Shown here: positions 26,136 through 37,358 of the stretch, one piece after another | Position numbering within the stretch: position 1 is the first letter of the stretch | Layout of the letters: every line of letters starts with the position of its first letter | IMG/VR virus record: IMGVR_UViG_3300048670_000918 | Span: 1-43,235 of that record | Length of the DNA stretch: 43,235 bases | Strand: one strand, 5' to 3' | Source of the DNA: a virus | Taxonomy: Duplodnaviria; Caudoviricetes | Notes under the pieces: model-generated | Told to the model about the DNA's origin: nothing | Seen by the model: the letters and a program-made list of their open reading frames with translations, nothing else | Database searches by the model: none | Program-made: the position numbers and the translations under genes

Positions 26136-26881
26136 TAGACCATGCCCCTGCCAAGACGAGTGGAAAAAGCACTTTTTCGCTTGGGGCGATTGTTCTCGTA
26201 TTCCTCTTCTGCATCCAGCAACACTTGCTCGCCCAGCTCCGTCAGACGATAGCACTTGCCAGTGCTCTTAATAGCTAAACCTTCTTCAACAATGGCTGTC
26301 AAACAGTTGTAAATAGTTTTCGCTTCATACAGTCCCTTATTCGATGGATGATTGATGATGCCATTAGACGTAGAGAAGAAGCCACCGCCGTCAATGTCAT
26401 TAAGCGCCCAAATCACATAAATACGAGCATTGGAAATGAAGCCAGGAATTCGATGGGTATCCTGCGCAGCCTCTAGCAGTTCCCTTTTGGTTGCTGCCAT
26501 TGGGTGCCACTTCACTGATTCTTTCATCCAACTACCAATATTGGTTTGCGCTTCTTTTGTGTGACAAGGCATGTCTTGTTGAATAAAACGCTGCAAGCCT
26601 GGCGTAAGCACAAACCATTCCCTGTTGTCCCTGCATCCATCGAAACGCTCGTGCAGAAGCTTCTCCTGCTCTATGTCGGCTTTGAAAGCTTTGAGCACTA
26701 CCAGTCGATGGCGGCAAGCAGTGAGGAACGTTGAGAACCGCGCCTTCAAATCAGTGGTGAAACCAATTTTGACGGCATAAGGATCATTTTCCCACTGGAC
26801 GACGTACACCCACCCTTCGTTTTGCCTTTTAGCCACTTTCTTAATTGGCACAGTGCCCATGTTTTTACTCCCTAAAATCAA
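26135..26881 (-). CDS. T5orf172-type GIY-YIG domain protein with possible C-terminal winged helix
   Basis: GWVYVV...VKIGFT..L..R...E..LH..F...EWF; C-terminal L..IVEEGLA.....YRLTELG. Confidence 0.75.
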   Translation of the reverse strand: MILGSKNMGTVPIKKVAKRQNEGWVYVVQWENDPYAVKIGFTTDLKARFSTFLTACRHRLVVLKAFKADIEQEKLLHERFDGCRDNREWFVLTPGLQRFIQQDMPCHTKEAQTNIGSWMKESVKWHPMAATKRELLEAAQDTHRIPGFISNARIYVIWALNDIDGGGFFSTSNGIINHPSNKGLYEAKTIYNCLTAIVEEGLAIKSTGKCYRLTELGEQVLLDAEEEYENNRPKRKSAFSTRLGRGMV

Positions 26882-26954
26882 GAACGCCCATCAATACTAG
26901 CGTAGATTTCCTGTCGGGAGTAAAAAGCTCCTTTCACCATTTGTTATGCTAGGC

Positions 26955-27075
26955 ATTGGAGAAGCACCGTCCACATTCCTGTTCGACCAGGAGCCTCGTA
27001 CACGGTGCCACGTAACCTCCGCTAGGAGCCCTACGCGCAGAGCCCCAAGCGCCTACGACAATAAGGGCTCCTTCC
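26955..27075 (+). ncRNA. Candidate structured ncRNA
   Basis: Extended -10 TGTTATGCT (26942-26950); stems GCACCGT/ACGGTGC, TCCTG/CAGGA, AGGAGCCCT/AGGGCTCCT. Confidence 0.45.
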
Positions 27076-27097
27076 TAACCATCCTTTCAATATTTCT

Positions 27098-27315
27098 TTA
27101 GCGAGAGCTGACGACGCCGCTGAAATTGTGATCGCACACGGCCAGGTAGAAGAAATTAACTAATACGATATGAAGAAGAAGAAAGGACGCAATGATTGAC
27201 GCTCTTGGGGAGCTACCCGCTCGATGCGTCCTAAGAACGATGGTAAAGAAAGTGCGAGGATCACACCGTAGTGACCTCACTACAGTTCGTAACTGTGCAA
27301 TCGTTCGGTCAGTCG
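27098..27315 (+). ncRNA. Candidate multi-stem structured element
   Basis: Nested stems CTGAC/GTCAG, GTGATC/GATCAC, AGGACGCA/TGCGTCCT plus local hairpins; overlapping ORFs look spurious. Confidence 0.35.
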
Positions 27316-27493
27316 CCATTGCTCTACTTGCAAAACAGGCGTTTAAACAATGTATATACATGCGCATAAATGGCTAGTCGTATTATCAATAAATGACAAT
27401 TATTAGGGATACAAGTAAGTAATATTTAGTGTTGAAAACTCGATGTAAAAATGGCGTCGATTCTGGAGGGGGTACCCCCACGCCACCCGCGCT

Positions 27494-27567
27494 AGTACGT
27501 CCGTACTACTGCTCCCTGTTAAGTTTTGTAACTGATCAGCATTCCTTATCGTATCACCGGGATTGAT
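27494..27567. promoter_or_regulatory. Mini cluster: LexA-like box, HLR1-like repeat, paired LysR-type boxes
   Basis: AGTACGTCCGTACT (27494-27507); minus-strand GTTACAAA-AC-TTAACAGG (27515-27532); ATCAGCATTCCTTAT (27535-27549); ATCACCGGGATTGAT (27553-27567). Confidence 0.6.
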
Positions 27568-27661
27568 TGATCAGAATTCGCATCAATCGGGCTTAATTTA
27601 CCCTTACCTGGCAAGAATGCTAGGCCTAGACTGTAACGCCTAGGCCTAGTTTATTCTCAGC

Positions 27662-28549
27662 CTAAGCTATGCAGAATGCCATTTTTTCGGCTTGAGTGTA
27701 CTTTATCCCATGGGGGAGTTTAAACCTTAGCCCGATTATGGTGTAACCCTTAGGATCACTGGGTCGATAATCTGTCAGGTCACCATCAACCACCTTAAAA
27801 GAACGTCCCAACGCGCTATTAGTGGGAGGCAAGGCTTGACCCTTTCTAAGGTTAAATGCGGCCGCTACATTAACGCCGTTAGCTATAGCTTGCGCCGCCA
27901 TCTTGACGTTTTTTCTATTGCTGGCACCATCGTAGCTAAAGGTTAGGTGATACCCGATAGAGTTACACTCAGCCCAATCATGCTTGTTTTTTGTATAGTC
28001 ATAGAGTCTAATCCTAAGCTCAGGATAATGGCTGAACATATGCGGAATGCTTTTATATACTGTCGGCACAATATAAACGCCGAACTTAACCTGCCAAACT
28101 CTAGATAATTCTGGGCTAACGGTGAATTCTAGAGTCTCCCAGAGTATATCCGACGTTCCGTTTAACCTAATAGCTAGCAACTCGTCTGGTGACAATAGGC
28201 TCCGATTGTATAAAATAGCAGTAGCAGTTAACTCTAGGAACAATTGCTGATCATCAAAAAATGCTAGGGTCTTCCTAACTCTGCAGGTTTTTTTGCCTCC
28301 CATTAAGTAAGGTATGCCAGCAAAGTGTAAACATATTTTGGCACAATTGCCAGCGTTAGGGCAAACATTTTGGCCTGAGATAATACTAGGAGCAAAGTGT
28401 AGAATTCTAGTCTCTTCTATGCTCTTCTCAGTTTTTGGGTTAATAGAAAGAGTGGTGCGGTGACTTAGGTTATGTTTTTTGCAGAATGCAGCAAGCCGAG
28501 GGGTTAACTTAGCGCGTGAATTTAGCGCGGTTTTTTGTAGGGTTGGCAT
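27662..28549 (-). CDS. GP88-like phage protein (Cys-rich, radical-SAM-like)
   Basis: CPNAGNCAKIC, IRLNGTSDI, YDYTK, YHLTFS, DGDLTDYR, IIGL.FK motifs. Confidence 0.8.
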   Translation of the reverse strand: MPTLQKTALNSRAKLTPRLAAFCKKHNLSHRTTLSINPKTEKSIEETRILHFAPSIISGQNVCPNAGNCAKICLHFAGIPYLMGGKKTCRVRKTLAFFDDQQLFLELTATAILYNRSLLSPDELLAIRLNGTSDILWETLEFTVSPELSRVWQVKFGVYIVPTVYKSIPHMFSHYPELRIRLYDYTKNKHDWAECNSIGYHLTFSYDGASNRKNVKMAAQAIANGVNVAAAFNLRKGQALPPTNSALGRSFKVVDGDLTDYRPSDPKGYTIIGLRFKLPHGIKYTQAEKMAFCIA

Positions 28550-28590
28550 CGTAGGATAAAGAATAAAGAACGGAAGGTAAAGAATAAAGC

Positions 28591-28896
28591 TTAAAAGTTT
28601 TCGCCGGGCTCATCCCATGCGACTACAGAACCGCTAACAGTTTGCCGATAAAATGTTTTTGTCGGCAATTGTGGTAGAATGGGAGAATTTGCAACCCGCG
28701 CTAGTTTTTGCAAAATTTGCTCTTTATCACCTCTGCAGATTAGAGTCCGGTGGAGTGTATGAAATGGCATAGGGTCGCAACGGTAAACAAAATAAAACCT
28801 TTTACCGTGCAAAATTTCATACTTAGCCTCCCATGTTTTTTTTGTTTTAAGCGTGAGAAAATCGCAGGCTTTATTAACTGTGGAAAATTCAATCAT
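28591..28896 (-). CDS. Hypothetical protein
   Basis: ORF upstream of the GP88-like gene; likely start ATG 28896. Confidence 0.55.
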   Translation of the reverse strand: MIEFSTVNKACDFLTLKTKKTWEAKYEILHGKRFYFVYRCDPMPFHTLHRTLICRGDKEQILQKLARVANSPILPQLPTKTFYRQTVSGSVVAWDEPGENF

Positions 28897-28932
28897 GGCG
28901 AGAAAAAAATAAAGAACGTTTTCCCGCATCGC

Positions 28933-28996
28933 TGCGGGCCTGGTGCGGGCCTGGTGGCCTTAAGCGGGCCTGGTGCGGGCCTGGTGGCCTGGTGCG
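28933..28996. repeat. GC-rich tandem repeat (GGCCTGGTG x5; 27-bp block duplicated at 30-bp spacing)
   Basis: GCGGGCCTGGTGCGGGCCTGGTGGCCT at 28934 and 28964. Confidence 0.9.
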
Positions 28997-29546
28997 CTGG
29001 TTTTCTAGGTGCGGGTCAGACCTTCGGCCCGACCTGCCAATAATGCGGCCAAAAACCGCCAACGATGCGGCCCGGTGGACGGTTATTAAGTGTCCACCGA
29101 TCGCCGCCGTTGCATTGACATATGGCAGGCCCATAGAGTACCGGCAGACAAAAACCCTCAAAATGGCGCCGATTAATAAAAAAACCGATCGCGCTCGCGC
29201 GTACCGCAGATCGGCCATTTTGTCAAGAAAACAGTTTTTTGTAGCGCGGCAAGCATCTAGACGCCTAGACGCTAGCTATAGCTTGAAACCTGCCAAAATA
29301 CTTTCTAGGTGTCCCCATACCCGGCAAGGATTAAAAGCGCTCCTAGGCGCTCCTAGGCGCCTCTCACAATTAATCAGCGCTGCTTATAATTGGCAACCAC
29401 AAAAACCGGCAAAATGCAACCACTATAAAGAATTTTTTTACAATTGCCCGCCTAGCACGTTTTTGTTGAGACTCGCGAGTCTCGTCACAATTGTTCACAG
29501 TCGATCGCCCCTAGATTCTCCCATTCTCCGATCGACAAACCGGGGG

Positions 29547-29708
29547 ATGAGAATCGCTTATATGATAAGGAATGCTGATCCACCGGACGGGATTGATCAC
29601 CATTGCTTATATGATAAGGAATGCTAATGGTTTCGGCTGGAATGATCAGAATCGCTTATATGATAAGGAATGCTGATCTAACTGCCAGGAATCATAAGGA
29701 ATGCTAAT
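29547..29708. promoter_or_regulatory. Seven LysR-type T-N11-A boxes (ATNAG-N5-CTNAT), 49-bp period
   Basis: Sites start at 29547, 29565, 29596, 29614, 29645, 29663 and 29694. Confidence 0.65.
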
Positions 29709-29766
29709 GTTACGAATTGTTACGAAATGTGAAGAAATGTTACAAAATGTTAAGAAATGTAACAAT
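29709..29766 (+). promoter_or_regulatory. Six HLR1-like (RpaB/OmpR-type) half-sites at exact 10-bp period
   Basis: GTTACGAA, GTTACGAA, GTGAAGAA, GTTACAAA, GTTAAGAA, GTAACAAT, each separated by 2 bp. Confidence 0.65.
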
Positions 29767-29800
29767 AGTACAAATGTACTACTATTAGTACAAATGTACC
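29767..29800. promoter_or_regulatory. Two cyanobacterial-type LexA boxes
   Basis: AGTACAAATGTACT (29767-29780) and AGTACAAATGTACC (29787-29800) both fit RGTACNNNDGTWCB. Confidence 0.75.
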
Positions 29801-29803
29801 ATT

Positions 29804-29822
29804 GGGAATGAAAATCATTCTT
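29804..29822. promoter_or_regulatory. Fur-family box
   Basis: GGGAATGAAAATCATTCTT matches GATAATGATAATCATTATC at 14/19, with palindromic core GAATGA-AAA-TCATTC. Confidence 0.55.
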
Positions 29823-29824
29823 AC

Positions 29825-29933
29825 TATACGCCTCCAGCCGGACCCTATACGCCTCTAGCCGGGTCTTATAGGCTTCTGGCCGGGTCCAAGATAGGCCGCT
29901 AGCCGGACCCAAGATAGGCTTCTGGCCGGATCT
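29825..29933. repeat. Five imperfect 21-23 bp tandem repeats (iteron-like)
   Basis: Units TATACGCCTCCAGCCGGACCC and variants start at 29825, 29846, 29867, 29890 and 29913. Confidence 0.9.
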
Positions 29934-30088
29934 CACCATCCTTTTCCATTGTTCGCCGCTTGAGCGGCTTTTTCTGCGTCTTCATACGGGCCTCCCACAT
30001 TATCGCCATCGTCTTCATACCAGTACCAGCCTTCTACTAGTTCAGTGCCCTTGCAGCAGGCTTCAGTGAAGAAATCAATGAGGATCAT
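29933..30088 (-). CDS. Hypothetical protein (51 aa)
   Basis: MILIDFFTEACCKGTELVEGWYWYEDDG...GGPYE; ATGA overlap with the upstream gene. Confidence 0.65.
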   Translation of the reverse strand: MILIDFFTEACCKGTELVEGWYWYEDDGDNVGGPYEDAEKAAQAANNGKGW

Positions 30089-30447
30089 GCTGCCCTCTGC
30101 AACCGTGCCACTGCCATTGCGAAAGTCTTAGGAGAACGCCCTCCTGGTCGCTTTAGCTCATAGCCATCATGGTCAACAATGGTGTCACCAGCACTGTCTA
30201 CGTGCCCTTCCAGCTCTCGCTCCCACAAGCCCCTGCAGGAGCCTTCTGCATCGAAGATGGCAATGGTGTCTTCACGGTCTTCCATGGCCAGCCTCACGTG
30301 GCGCAGAATATCGCTGACGCTCGTCGCCTGGTAGCTCATGGTCGTGGCCCCAAAATAAGGGCCATTATCTTGATAAGTGCGAACGGTAGTCATAAAAGAA
30401 GAAGCAATGGCGAGGGAATGGTCTTTAATGAACGAAGAAGTCATCAA
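30085..30447 (-). CDS. Hypothetical protein
   Basis: ORF in the early-type minus-strand cluster; start may be the internal ATG (MTTVRTY). Confidence 0.65.
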   Translation of the reverse strand: MMTSSFIKDHSLAIASSFMTTVRTYQDNGPYFGATTMSYQATSVSDILRHVRLAMEDREDTIAIFDAEGSCRGLWERELEGHVDSAGDTIVDHDGYELKRPGGRSPKTFAMAVARLQRAA

Positions 30448-30632
30448 TCGTCTCCAATAATACGAAAATCAGGATCATTGTCCTTTTTAATCCATCGACA
30501 CTGATTAGTGCCAGGAATTACGATAAACATCTTGTCATGGTGGTTTTGTTCTACTATTGCCATTGTTAGCTTTTTACCAATGCGGCTTTTGCCTTTGTCG
30601 CTGATAGCGATGATGTTGATAGCGTCTTGCAT
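30444..30632 (-). CDS. Hypothetical protein
   Basis: MQDAINIIAISDKGKSRIG...WIKKDNDPDF; likely start ATG 30632. Confidence 0.65.
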   Translation of the reverse strand: MQDAINIIAISDKGKSRIGKKLTMAIVEQNHHDKMFIVIPGTNQCRWIKKDNDPDFRIIGDD

Positions 30633-30698
30633 GGTTTTGAAGGCAACGAAGGAAGAATAAAGGAAGGAGGGGCCTTGGGGGCCTCTTGGTGACAATGC

Positions 30699-31079
30699 TT
30701 AACAGAAAGCAGTGCGACCATTGGAATAGGCAAACCATTCTTGCTTGCCTTTGCTGGCTTCCCTGGTCAGAGCCTCCCACTTTTCTGGCAGCTCTTCAGT
30801 CTCAATAATGGTGCCTGCTGGCACTTGGATGGGGCCGTTCAGGGTGGAAATGGTCCACTGGTCTGCCACGGGGCCATTGAGGTACCAAGTTTTGCAGACG
30901 TGCAGCAAGCCATTCATTTCAAGCTTGCGGGGATTGGCAGCGCCCATGCGCACCTGGATGGGGAAAGGCTCGTGCCAAGCAGGCACGGTGACAGTGAGGC
31001 TAATGGTGTTGAGCCCGTTGAATGCCGTGTAGGTGTCAGCGGTGGTGAGCTGCTCGACTGTGTGATTGATGCGGGTCAT
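30699..31079 (-). CDS. Hypothetical protein
   Basis: Start ATG 31079 downstream of a promoter and 5' hairpin. Confidence 0.7.
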   Translation of the reverse strand: MTRINHTVEQLTTADTYTAFNGLNTISLTVTVPAWHEPFPIQVRMGAANPRKLEMNGLLHVCKTWYLNGPVADQWTISTLNGPIQVPAGTIIETEELPEKWEALTREASKGKQEWFAYSNGRTAFC

Positions 31080-31097
31080 GGTTTTGAAGCTGGTGGA

Positions 31098-31149
31098 GAG
31101 CCTCTCGGCCCGTTGAAAGAACAATAAGCTCAAGCGAGACAGAAGTCAA
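31098..31149 (-). promoter_or_regulatory. Sigma70-type promoter with 5' GAGA-tetraloop hairpin
   Basis: TTGACT-N17-TATTGT followed by GGGCC-GAGA-GGCTC. Confidence 0.75.
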
Positions 31150-31691
31150 GCTTTCCAGGCAAATTCGGTCATAGAAGCAGGGGCCAGGCCAGTGAAGCGT
31201 TGAAAAGCAGCAAGGGCAGCTTCAGAGTGGCCGCCAATGTGCCACTGGTATTCGCCTTTGGGGGTGGAGGCTTGCTTCCAATCGTAGACAGTGAAGGATT
31301 CGCCGTTTTCCAGCTTCCAGCACCACTGCACAGTGATTTTGTCACATTCATATTCATGGGGCTTGCCCATGGTGGCGACAAGTGCTGCGAAGGTGGTTTT
31401 GACGTAGCCCTGAAGGCTGGTTCCCCATGGTTCGCCTTCGGAAGCAACAGCAATGGGGAGAAGCTTGGCGGCAGGGGCGGGAACAGGGGGCAGGCGGTAG
31501 GCCCCTCGCACATAGGCGCGGATCGTGGCCAGATTTGAGTCAATAATCGTGCCGCCTCCGCTCAAGGCTTCAGTAGTCCAGCCAAATGCGAGATGGCAGC
31601 ACCAACCATCGGGGCAGCGCTCCAATGATTCAACGCCGGGCATGGCCAGGATGGCGGCGGCGGCTTTGGGCAGCAGTTTGAAAACGGTCAT
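31146..31691 (-). CDS. Hypothetical protein (two domains, Pro/Ala linker)
   Basis: GTSLQGYV...G.P...DK...W...FTVYDWK...WHIGG; start ATG 31691. Confidence 0.7.
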   Translation of the reverse strand: MTVFKLLPKAAAAILAMPGVESLERCPDGWCCHLAFGWTTEALSGGGTIIDSNLATIRAYVRGAYRLPPVPAPAAKLLPIAVASEGEPWGTSLQGYVKTTFAALVATMGKPHEYECDKITVQWCWKLENGESFTVYDWKQASTPKGEYQWHIGGHSEAALAAFQRFTGLAPASMTEFAWKA

Positions 31692-31708
31692 GGTCTGAAG
31701 GGGGTGGT

Positions 31709-31766
31709 GAGGCTCTCGCCTCGTTGAAATAACAATAAGCCAGAAAGGGGCCGTTACCGGCCCCTC
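31709..31766 (-). promoter_or_regulatory. Terminator-like hairpin, then -10 and 5' GAGA hairpin
   Basis: AGGGGCC-GGTAAC-GGCCCCT-TT, then TATTGT (31732-31737), then GAGGC-GAGA-GCCTC (31709-31722). Confidence 0.7.
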
Positions 31767-36946: not shown

Positions 36947-37013
36947 GGGAGTCCTGTAGGGGGAACTCCGTTATTGTTGCAGGGACGATGGCAGGCGTCA
37001 ATGCTTTTGGCTA

Positions 37014-37358
37014 TCAGCGCTGCTTATGCTTCCAGCCAGTGGCAATGAAGTGGCATGGTCCTAAAGGCGCTAAATGCACATGCCTACCAGCGCGTTCCAC
37101 CATGGTCTGGAATGCCTGTCTGCGGGTCTTGTCGAGGCGTCCGTCAGGCTCCACTAGCCAGCTCCTAGCCCAGTCTGCCACCTCTTCAATGTCGCTAATG
37201 TCATTAGTGCGCACCAGGAAGTGCCTGCCACGCTGCTCTAGCTTGCGCCACACGGGATGCACCATAGGCTCCTGAGCGGCAATAGCTTGTGCATCAGCCT
37301 TTAACGCAGGCGGAATGCAAAGGCTTATCAATGGGGGGAGAATGGTAGTGTCAATCAT
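37014..37358 (-). CDS. Hypothetical protein
   Basis: ORF in operon position; likely start ATG 37358. Confidence 0.6.
   Translation of the reverse strand: MIDTTILPPLISLCIPPALKADAQAIAAQEPMVHPVWRKLEQRGRHFLVRTNDISDIEEVADWARSWLVEPDGRLDKTRRQAFQTMVERAGRHVHLAPLGPCHFIATGWKHKQR

Follow-up and report, generated by a model that had tools for sequence, protein, structure and literature searches.

A hypervariable non-coding slot of tandem operator-like motifs, resembling host regulator sites, in S-CBS4-like cyanophages

The genes which cyanophages carry are regarded as their means of redirecting photosynthesis and nutrient use in the host. The chromosomal locus datA titrates DnaA, and in plasmid iterons, as in lambda cosB with IHF, direct repeats lie beside host-factor sites. 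Cyanophage promoters which work with host regulators carry host-type Pho, NtcA and HLR1 motifs (PMC10976474, PMC3037559, PMC6525291), and host PhoB is reported to read promoters of S-PM2d and P-SSM2 genes (PMC10976474). Synthetic PhoB decoys in E. coli, as described, consist of consensus-like sites in tandem, which become more numerous as their replicon does (PMC8599769). The injection-stop region of phage T5 is a large, untranslated and repeat-rich region with host-protein sites, proposed to gate DNA entry; its description gives one host motif (paired DnaA boxes), a fixed layout and a mapped terminal repeat (10.1101/866236). LysR operators of the RS/AS1/AS2 kind, including those of Synechocystis RbcR, are built from paired 15-bp T-N11-A palindromes (PMC11495319, PMC13249358).

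The DNA analysed here, called the window, is the whole stretch of 43,235 nucleotides in virus record IMGVR_UViG_3300048670_000918, a 43-kb linear record which is about 60% complete. It contains an array of repeated motifs at 29547..29822. Judged from its sequence, this stretch is real, conserved and unusual, and it is one four-class filling of a hypervariable slot of tandem operators of apparent host type. Host-type motifs are shared with the cyanophage promoters, but the known promoters have one or two sites each, while the slot can contain as many as 28 half-sites, or 7-8 boxes, in a stack, with regulators mixed, sets swapped between relatives and no fixed distance to a promoter. The slot resembles the T5 region in its repeats and its putative host-protein sites, yet the latter are interchangeable transcription-factor sites, and the slot is known from contigs in which the molecule ends are not seen. 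Compared with decoy arrays such as the PhoB decoys and datA, it would be natural, virus-borne, multi-target and aimed at the regulators of another organism. Its LysR-type palindromes are paired as in LysR operators, but both sites are strong, a third site was not found, the pairs stand in tandem and their core is not that of the RbcR consensus. Iteron origins and lambda cosB likewise have three to six direct repeats of about two helical turns beside host-protein sites; unlike them, the slot and its bordering G block (see below) gave no fixed geometry, and an initiator or small-terminase partner was not identified. Searches of open-access full texts brought up no account of phage operator arrays that serve several regulators or are interchangeable, in agreement with the initial annotation of this DNA, which knew of no such cassette. 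We found no described family for the element, and we infer its function from sequence comparison.

The window's capsid protein showed 82.6% identity to Synechococcus phage S-CBS4 and less than 60% to every other match; terminase, portal, ribonucleotide reductase and primase/helicase matched S-CBS4 as well, with gene order kept. By sequence the array-bearing virus is thus classed as an S-CBS4-like cyanosiphovirus, and since the S-CBS4-like proteins stand in shared order, its host is probably a picocyanobacterium. The array is flanked on one side by small early-type minus-strand genes, the last of which, before the slot, is a conserved acidic ORF of 51 aa (29933..30088, minus strand) that served as an unbiased anchor. 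On the other side lies a GP88-family gene (PF17338; 27662..28549, minus strand), which follows the slot in many relatives. The deposited S-CBS4 record, HQ698895.1 (L050, L051), ends within the homolog of window ORF 30085-30447 and resumes approximately 315 bp before rnr; it has no counterpart of window ~25.8-30.2 kb, i.e., just the slot stretch. With both S-CBS4 and its host in culture, the slot is open to direct testing. Two ORFs across the array (28992-29627, plus strand; 29646-29939, minus strand) were taken as spurious, as they had no PHROG family. A search of window 26800-31500 against Rfam for structured RNA gave no matches at E up to 0.1. In one sample, possibly that of origin, contig mean depth just left of the array was 28.3 (X1) and 27.8 and 31.7 (X2), with ~14-25 on most other contigs and 27.3 on one 778-bp contig; these are contig means, and no terminus claim is based on them.

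All four blocks claimed for the array, and their coordinates, held with corrections (motif blocks are given here without strand). The first, 29547..29708, comprises seven 15-bp ATNAG-N5-CTNAT palindromes of LysR type, six of them exact (29547, 29565, 29614, 29645, 29663 and 29694), while the seventh, at 29596, has one mismatch. The claimed 49-bp period is exact, but the grouping into three pairs plus one is better redrawn: boxes 31 bp apart form pairs (29565/29596, 29614/29645 and 29663/29694), one box stays unpaired, and the pair units abut at 18 bp, which gives the period. Six exact boxes were reached by none of 2000 dinucleotide shuffles (mean 0.01). The second block, 29708..29767, is HLR1/RpaB-like and consists of six TGTTAC-like direct-repeat units of 10 bp; it had been read as six GTTAC(A/G)AA-like half-sites, and number and period are right, but only three of the six units fit that motif. 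Exact HLR1 is absent from the block, the best pair being one mismatch off (29746, minus strand). Two boxes of cyanobacterial LexA type occupy 29767..29800, with 0 and 1 mismatch from AGTACWNWTGTACT. They start at 29767 and 29787, 20 bp apart as first noted, and are the window's only matches to RGTACNNNDGTWCB; two such matches were reached by 0 of 2000 shuffles. The single Fur-like box, at 29804..29822, is present where claimed, but its 14/19 match to the 19-bp GATAATGATAATCATTATC-like site was equalled by 7 of 200 shuffles and is weak alone; better copies occur in relatives. NtcA and CRP sites, as well as Pho boxes, were not found in the window's array. The pattern statistics for the window were fitted post hoc to seen sequence, and the independent support comes from the relatives.

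Several neighbouring parts were absent from the first reading. Next to the array, the G block (29824..29932) consists of five direct repeats of 21-23 bp with the minus-strand consensus GG(A/G)(T/C)CCGGCT-N6-GTAT. It forms the constant border of the slot, occurring in 28 of 48 relative types and in 1 of 40 upstream controls, and 144 units from relatives gave a tight consensus, the core positions of which were fixed by the search pattern, with spacing mostly 21 or 23. Its binder is presumably a phage protein. On the other side of the array, element B (29449..29501, minus strand) combines an HLR1-like repeat pair, a 16-bp palindrome and a -10-like hexamer, and is a candidate leftward promoter. 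A second conserved promoter-like element, P (29030..29118, left limit approximate, minus strand), precedes the GP88 block and may be a promoter as well. Of 47 types, 21 gave a profile match to B, with the last named box 43-395 bp away, and 16 gave one to P, at 214-658 bp from that box; these distances are taken from profiles, a first promoter-distance test having yielded too few elements. The initial annotation saw no gene start adjacent to the array. The upstream gene does end at 29933 and the nearest next ORF start is ~620-650 bp off, but a conserved promoter-like element lies 50-100 bp away, and given element B the idea that nothing adjacent is there to regulate is too strong.

Solitary LysR-type boxes with the same 15-mer were found at 29373..29387 and, between early-region ORFs, at 37013..37027. 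A second small cassette, in inverted order and 2 kb from the array, spans 27468..27549 and contains GGGGGTACCCCC, a LexA-like box at 27494 (2 mismatches), TTTGTAAC at 27525 and a LysR-type box at 27535; the GP88 block lies between this cassette and a further GGGGGTACCCCC motif. A short ORF of no family (28591..28929, minus strand) shows 56% identity to same-place ORFs in L030 and L042. Among minor features, the GP88 block has short tandem repeats rich in GC, and CTAG repeats in clusters, on its flanks (28934-28990, 29257-29360, 27620-27650). A GC hairpin with a T tail at 29955-29968 (plus strand), within the 3' part of the 51-aa ORF, points away from the array and may stop transcription from the slot; comparable hairpins exist in relatives. 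A 45-bp promoter-like repeat is present in two copies in the early block (31085-31129 and 31696-31740), one of them with a weak LysR-type box (31772) just upstream. In seven relatives (L508, L522, L536, L562, L577, L583, L586) an ORF of ~200 codons, HNH-like by eye, is situated between the 51-aa gene and the G block.

Pattern scans returned 49 and 87 viral stretches, many beside homologs of window genes. Against circularity, proteins were then used as anchors, ORF 30444 giving 61 loci and the 51-aa ORF 78. In the first count, 65 of the 78 loci had 1200 bp downstream and were sorted into 48 types, with 40 upstream controls; an exact LysR-type box was found in 20 types, LexA in 25 and the G pattern in 28, compared with 1, 0 and 1 of the controls. 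The second count comprised 232 loci with the 51-aa gene, from which 146 with a G cluster and a further 550 bp beyond it were kept and 86 dropped. The 146 loci fell into 58 types, 48 of which contain a protein-anchored locus. Within these 48, LysR-type boxes were present in 26 types, LexA in 24 and Fur-like boxes in 18, at least two HLR1-like pairs in 7, at least two Pho pairs in 5 and at least two NtcA boxes in 2. In 51 upstream controls LysR-type, LexA, Fur, Pho and NtcA motifs were absent and HLR1 occurred once. Pho boxes, described as PyTTAAPyPyT/A repeats with an 11-bp period (PMC10976474), were found in relatives only, with 28 half-sites at a dominant 11-bp period in L469, 20 each in L502 and L517, 9 in L486 and a weaker run in L506; Pho-box prediction in phages is termed unreliable in the same source. 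NtcA boxes, GTA-N8-TAC (PMC3037559), were likewise confined to relatives, six in L540 and two in L525. Since the slot was located without the Pho or the NtcA motif, these arrays are the strongest evidence of an independent kind.

The content of the slot is exchanged fast between close relatives. The anchor-gene tree (156 bp, 57 rows) is short and leaves many forks open, but it supports a near-identical group of L536, L539, L547 and L548, which have four different motif sets, and it places L502, a Pho type, as sister to LysR/LexA/Fur types. Near-identical anchor genes with differing sets imply that the slot can do without any one regulator. The order of the blocks and their distance from the G block also vary among relatives. 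That the four-regulator cassette of the initial annotation is a fixed one is not supported, as the slot of relatives takes other motif sets, including Pho and NtcA runs. The spacers inside the LysR-type pairs are partly conserved. At least one named motif class is present in 37/48 types, and 11/48 have unnamed repeats or none. The unnamed tandem motifs are TTAGCA-N5-TGCTAA (L468, L548, L569), ATCAACAATTAAT and AAAGAAT runs (L461, L466, L568), GTAGAATATAC (L457, L541), GATACG-type repeats (L474, L486), TTTGCAGAATTTGC (L475), GCTGCACTCT (L472) and ATATGGGC (L567), and these are candidate sites of further host regulators. Arrays of GCATATGC were not above shuffles with the pattern used.

LexA is the firmest of the regulator assignments. 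The cyanobacterial LexA box is a 14-bp palindrome, given as the consensus matched in the window (PMC3091678), and among 39 LexA boxes in protein-anchored relatives 16 had no mismatch, 10 had one, 12 had two and one had three. LexA-like pairs were also seen in other viral lineages. The HLR1 motif of RpaB is described as a (G/T)TTACA(T/A)(T/A)-N2 direct repeat (PMC6525291), and the assignment to RpaB is less firm, as similar runs exist in non-cyanobacterial phages. Indeed, TGTTA runs at 10-11 bp were found also in a Salmonella phage and in Helicobacter phages; S-CREM1 and Helicobacter matches were short or of low complexity. Loose HLR1 searches over 1200 bp gave no separation (slot 19/48, control 10/40), nor did a loose Fur pattern with 6/19 mismatches (slot 22/48, control 14/40). 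A Fur-like 15-mer derived from relatives, which may stand for Fur or Zur, was found in 18/48 types and in 0/51 controls.

The ATNAG-N5-CTNAT boxes have the make-up of a LysR-type operator, T-N11-A dyads paired on a tetramer-sized spacing. In relatives reached through neighbouring proteins and scored with a matrix built from pattern-found loci, the first gap was 31 bp in 17/25 and 22 bp in 4/25 of the types with at least two boxes, spacings which we take to match uninduced and induced LysR tetramers, respectively. The T-N11-A rule, paired sites and bending are described for LysR sites in general (PMC11495319). No box-like score for a weaker alternative (sliding-dimer) site was obtained at +20 to +23 in 44 pair units, where very degenerate sites might escape. 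The initial annotation related the boxes to RbcR. The Synechocystis consensus ATTA(G/A)-N5-(C/T)TAAT (PMC13249358) is missed: strict ATTAR-N5-YTAAT had 0 exact matches in the window and in 0/48 relative types, two window boxes being one mismatch away. RbcR is the leading candidate binder since it is the one LysR regulator listed for Prochlorococcus MED4 (PMC6778093), and it is less firmly assigned than LexA. The proteobacterial CbbR operator was rejected as an identity for the box, as 0/82 proteobacterial cbbL upstream regions scored >10 bits; L341, with one exact LysR-type box, is outside that 82-region count. A GTDB pattern scan for the strict LysR pair gave 50 matches, none titled cyanobacterial, and among 18 matches in a plasmid collection there was no picocyanobacterial record with psbA. 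A RuBisCO-based metagenome scan gave 80 loci, and 0 of the 79 readable ones had the upstream shell gene which marks the cyanobacterial operon; a viral scan with a RuBisCO alignment confirmed nothing, and no photosystem gene was found in 31 genomes from a phylum search started on one genome. In 14 stretches from cultured phages a LysR-type box >10 bits was found in three and a dense array in none.

The boxes are not confined to the S-CBS4-like family. LysR-type pairs and LexA boxes were found after the terminase gene in the T7-like contigs L164 (terL with 83% identity to Prochlorococcus phage P-SSP10) and L129, and in the psbA-bearing contig L142. In T4-like contigs LysR-type boxes lie near baseplate genes (the best cultured matches of L180 are Synechococcus phages), and in L040, L159 and L181 they stand beside a GP88-family gene, Pfam-confirmed in L040 and L159, as in the window's second cassette. 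LysR-type and LexA boxes in T7-like phages and LysR-type boxes in T4-like phages point to host proteins as the likely binders. In five near-complete relatives no LysR helix-turn-helix, OmpR-type domain or hli was found, and a psbA match was found neither in five joined relatives nor in S-CBS4 or the window. We consider it very probable that host proteins bind the slot motifs in general; confidence is lower for each named binder (LexA, a LysR protein such as RbcR, Fur, an OmpR-family protein such as RpaB, PhoB/SphR or NtcA). The reading as host-regulator sites thus survives in its general form, with the boxes kept in relatives and recurring across families and no LysR or OmpR-type domain found in the five relatives, but with RbcR and RpaB less firm. 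On any host-binding reading, the slot would show which regulators selection leads phages of picocyanobacteria to engage, and would offer candidate sites for regulators with undescribed motifs.

As to function, we tentatively prefer a decoy that titrates host regulators, which we rate somewhat short of an even chance. The swappable non-coding slot would bind host regulators by its tandem operator-like motifs and draw them off host promoters, increasingly as the phage genome multiplies. The replicated genome could supply hundreds of sites. Two strong LysR boxes 31 bp apart with none between would hold a tetramer in one state, without switching. With no phage protein needed, titration would set free the genes for iron uptake and high light as well as recA, and transcription for carbon fixation would fall. 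This is suggested by copy numbers far above the need of one promoter, by the variable distance to the promoter-like elements, by Pho and NtcA motifs of right geometry that were unused in slot finding, by strong symmetric LysR sites without a switch site, by differing sets in near-identical phages, by the return of the boxes in T7- and T4-like contigs, and by near-complete relatives that gave no match to hli or psbA. A decoy is numerically plausible, given that some 96 decoy sites on plasmids suffice to slow the PhoB response of E. coli (PMC8599769). The decoy explains the window's four classes well but the Pho and NtcA arrays poorly, as titration of the activators PhoB and NtcA has no obvious phage benefit. 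Also against it are the few sites on one incoming genome, the types with unnamed repeats or none, the cultured-phage stretches without a dense array, the LysR box with its 0/82 cbbL regions and no GTDB match titled cyanobacterial, the reported unreliability of Pho-box prediction in phages, the partly conserved spacers within pairs, and the last LysR box in the window, ~110 bp from a candidate start site and so near the reported -90 activating position of RbcR.

In a bolder version, which we think possible and distinctly doubtful, the slot would be an island for host control that is hypervariable and needs no protein. Stocked with tandem operators chosen as from a menu (LexA, RbcR, Fur, RpaB, PhoB, NtcA and several unnamed), it would soak up the regulators relevant to the niche of each phage and take the place of auxiliary metabolic genes. 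If so, the unnamed arrays would give sites of uncharacterised picocyanobacterial regulators, and carbon fixation, DNA repair and nutrient responses would be retuned by DNA alone. A non-coding interchangeable operator array would be a second route to host control beside carried genes, invisible to gene-based surveys, in phages where hli and psbA were not found.

Somewhat unlikely, in our estimate, is that the host proteins form a coat or gate beside the G block, at a start of packaging or entry or at a replication origin, so that a phage DNA transaction depends on the state of the host or on any DNA-binding host protein that is abundant. The slot always has its place next to the lineage-specific 21/23-bp repeats, and that activator and repressor sites are interchangeable speaks more for a coat than for a targeted effect; the blocks, however, vary in order and in distance from the G block. 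In T7-like phages the boxes lie within the end leader, the GP88 block is bracketed by cassette and motif, the S-CBS4 record lacks exactly the slot, and the DnaA-box region of T5 provides a precedent, itself a hypothesis in its source (10.1101/866236). In the window and most near-complete relatives, cumulative GC skew reaches a local minimum at the slot or just past it, but this may reflect early-gene composition. A terminus or origin at this place is putative, and the terminase comparison had no informative characterised relative.

The possibility that the array is an extended control region, by which host regulators switch the adjacent early promoters (B, P and the GP88 block) according to host state, we regard as unlikely. 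It would account for the conserved promoter-like elements after the slot, with a candidate promoter ~100 bp from the last box, for the 22-bp LysR spacing in some relatives and for the HLR1-like pair of element B, which by its presumed position is near a reported -51 activating position. Host PhoB was bound to cyanophage promoters in gel shift (PMC10976474), and NtcA sites have been predicted (PMC3037559). There is no fixed distance to B or P, however, and most sites are >100 bp upstream and far more than promoter control needs. An integrase-like gene in 2/5 near-complete relatives also speaks for it, but 3/5 and S-CBS4 showed no match. The decoy, gate and promoter readings are not exclusive, as bound proteins imply some titration in any case. 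Least probable, in our view, is that the motifs are phage-protein sites, or slippage-amplified repeats with incidental likeness to host sites. This would agree with the missed RbcR consensus, with AGTAC-N4-GTACT pairs in viral contigs showing no cyanophage sign, with the unnamed arrays and with the XRE regulator of the family (the sole regulator family in a Pfam scan of 79/125 ORFs of G342), but published host patterns, periods included, are matched by six motif classes, five T7-/T4-like records bearing the same boxes gave no match to the window's XRE regulator in a search without positive control, and reversed-pattern controls gave 0-1 matches per genome.

Some further observations were made in relatives and cultured phages. 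A tyrosine-recombinase gene was present in two of the five near-complete relatives, G342 (L440:12653-13504) and G337. Clusters of DnaA-box-like TTTTCCACA/TGTGGAAAA lie near the boxes in T4-like L040 and L189:5700-5742, and after GP88 in G342. A solitary LysR-type box stands just before portal, between the divergent terminase and portal genes, in S-CBS4 (L050:7283), G339 and G342; the window has no exact copy there. The cultured CB0101 podoviruses S-CBP3 (L420:2211-2247) and S-CBP4 (L427:172) have a LysR-type box in the leader that precedes the first early genes, together with Fur-like sequence, and in S-CBP3 the LysR-type pair has the 22-bp spacing. Salmonella phage Si3 (L192:780-2700) contains a 1.8-kb non-coding region with TTAACA runs, a TGTTAAGAAAA run of 11-bp period and GTTAC/GTAAC repeats, which may be the counterpart of the slot in an enterobacterial phage.
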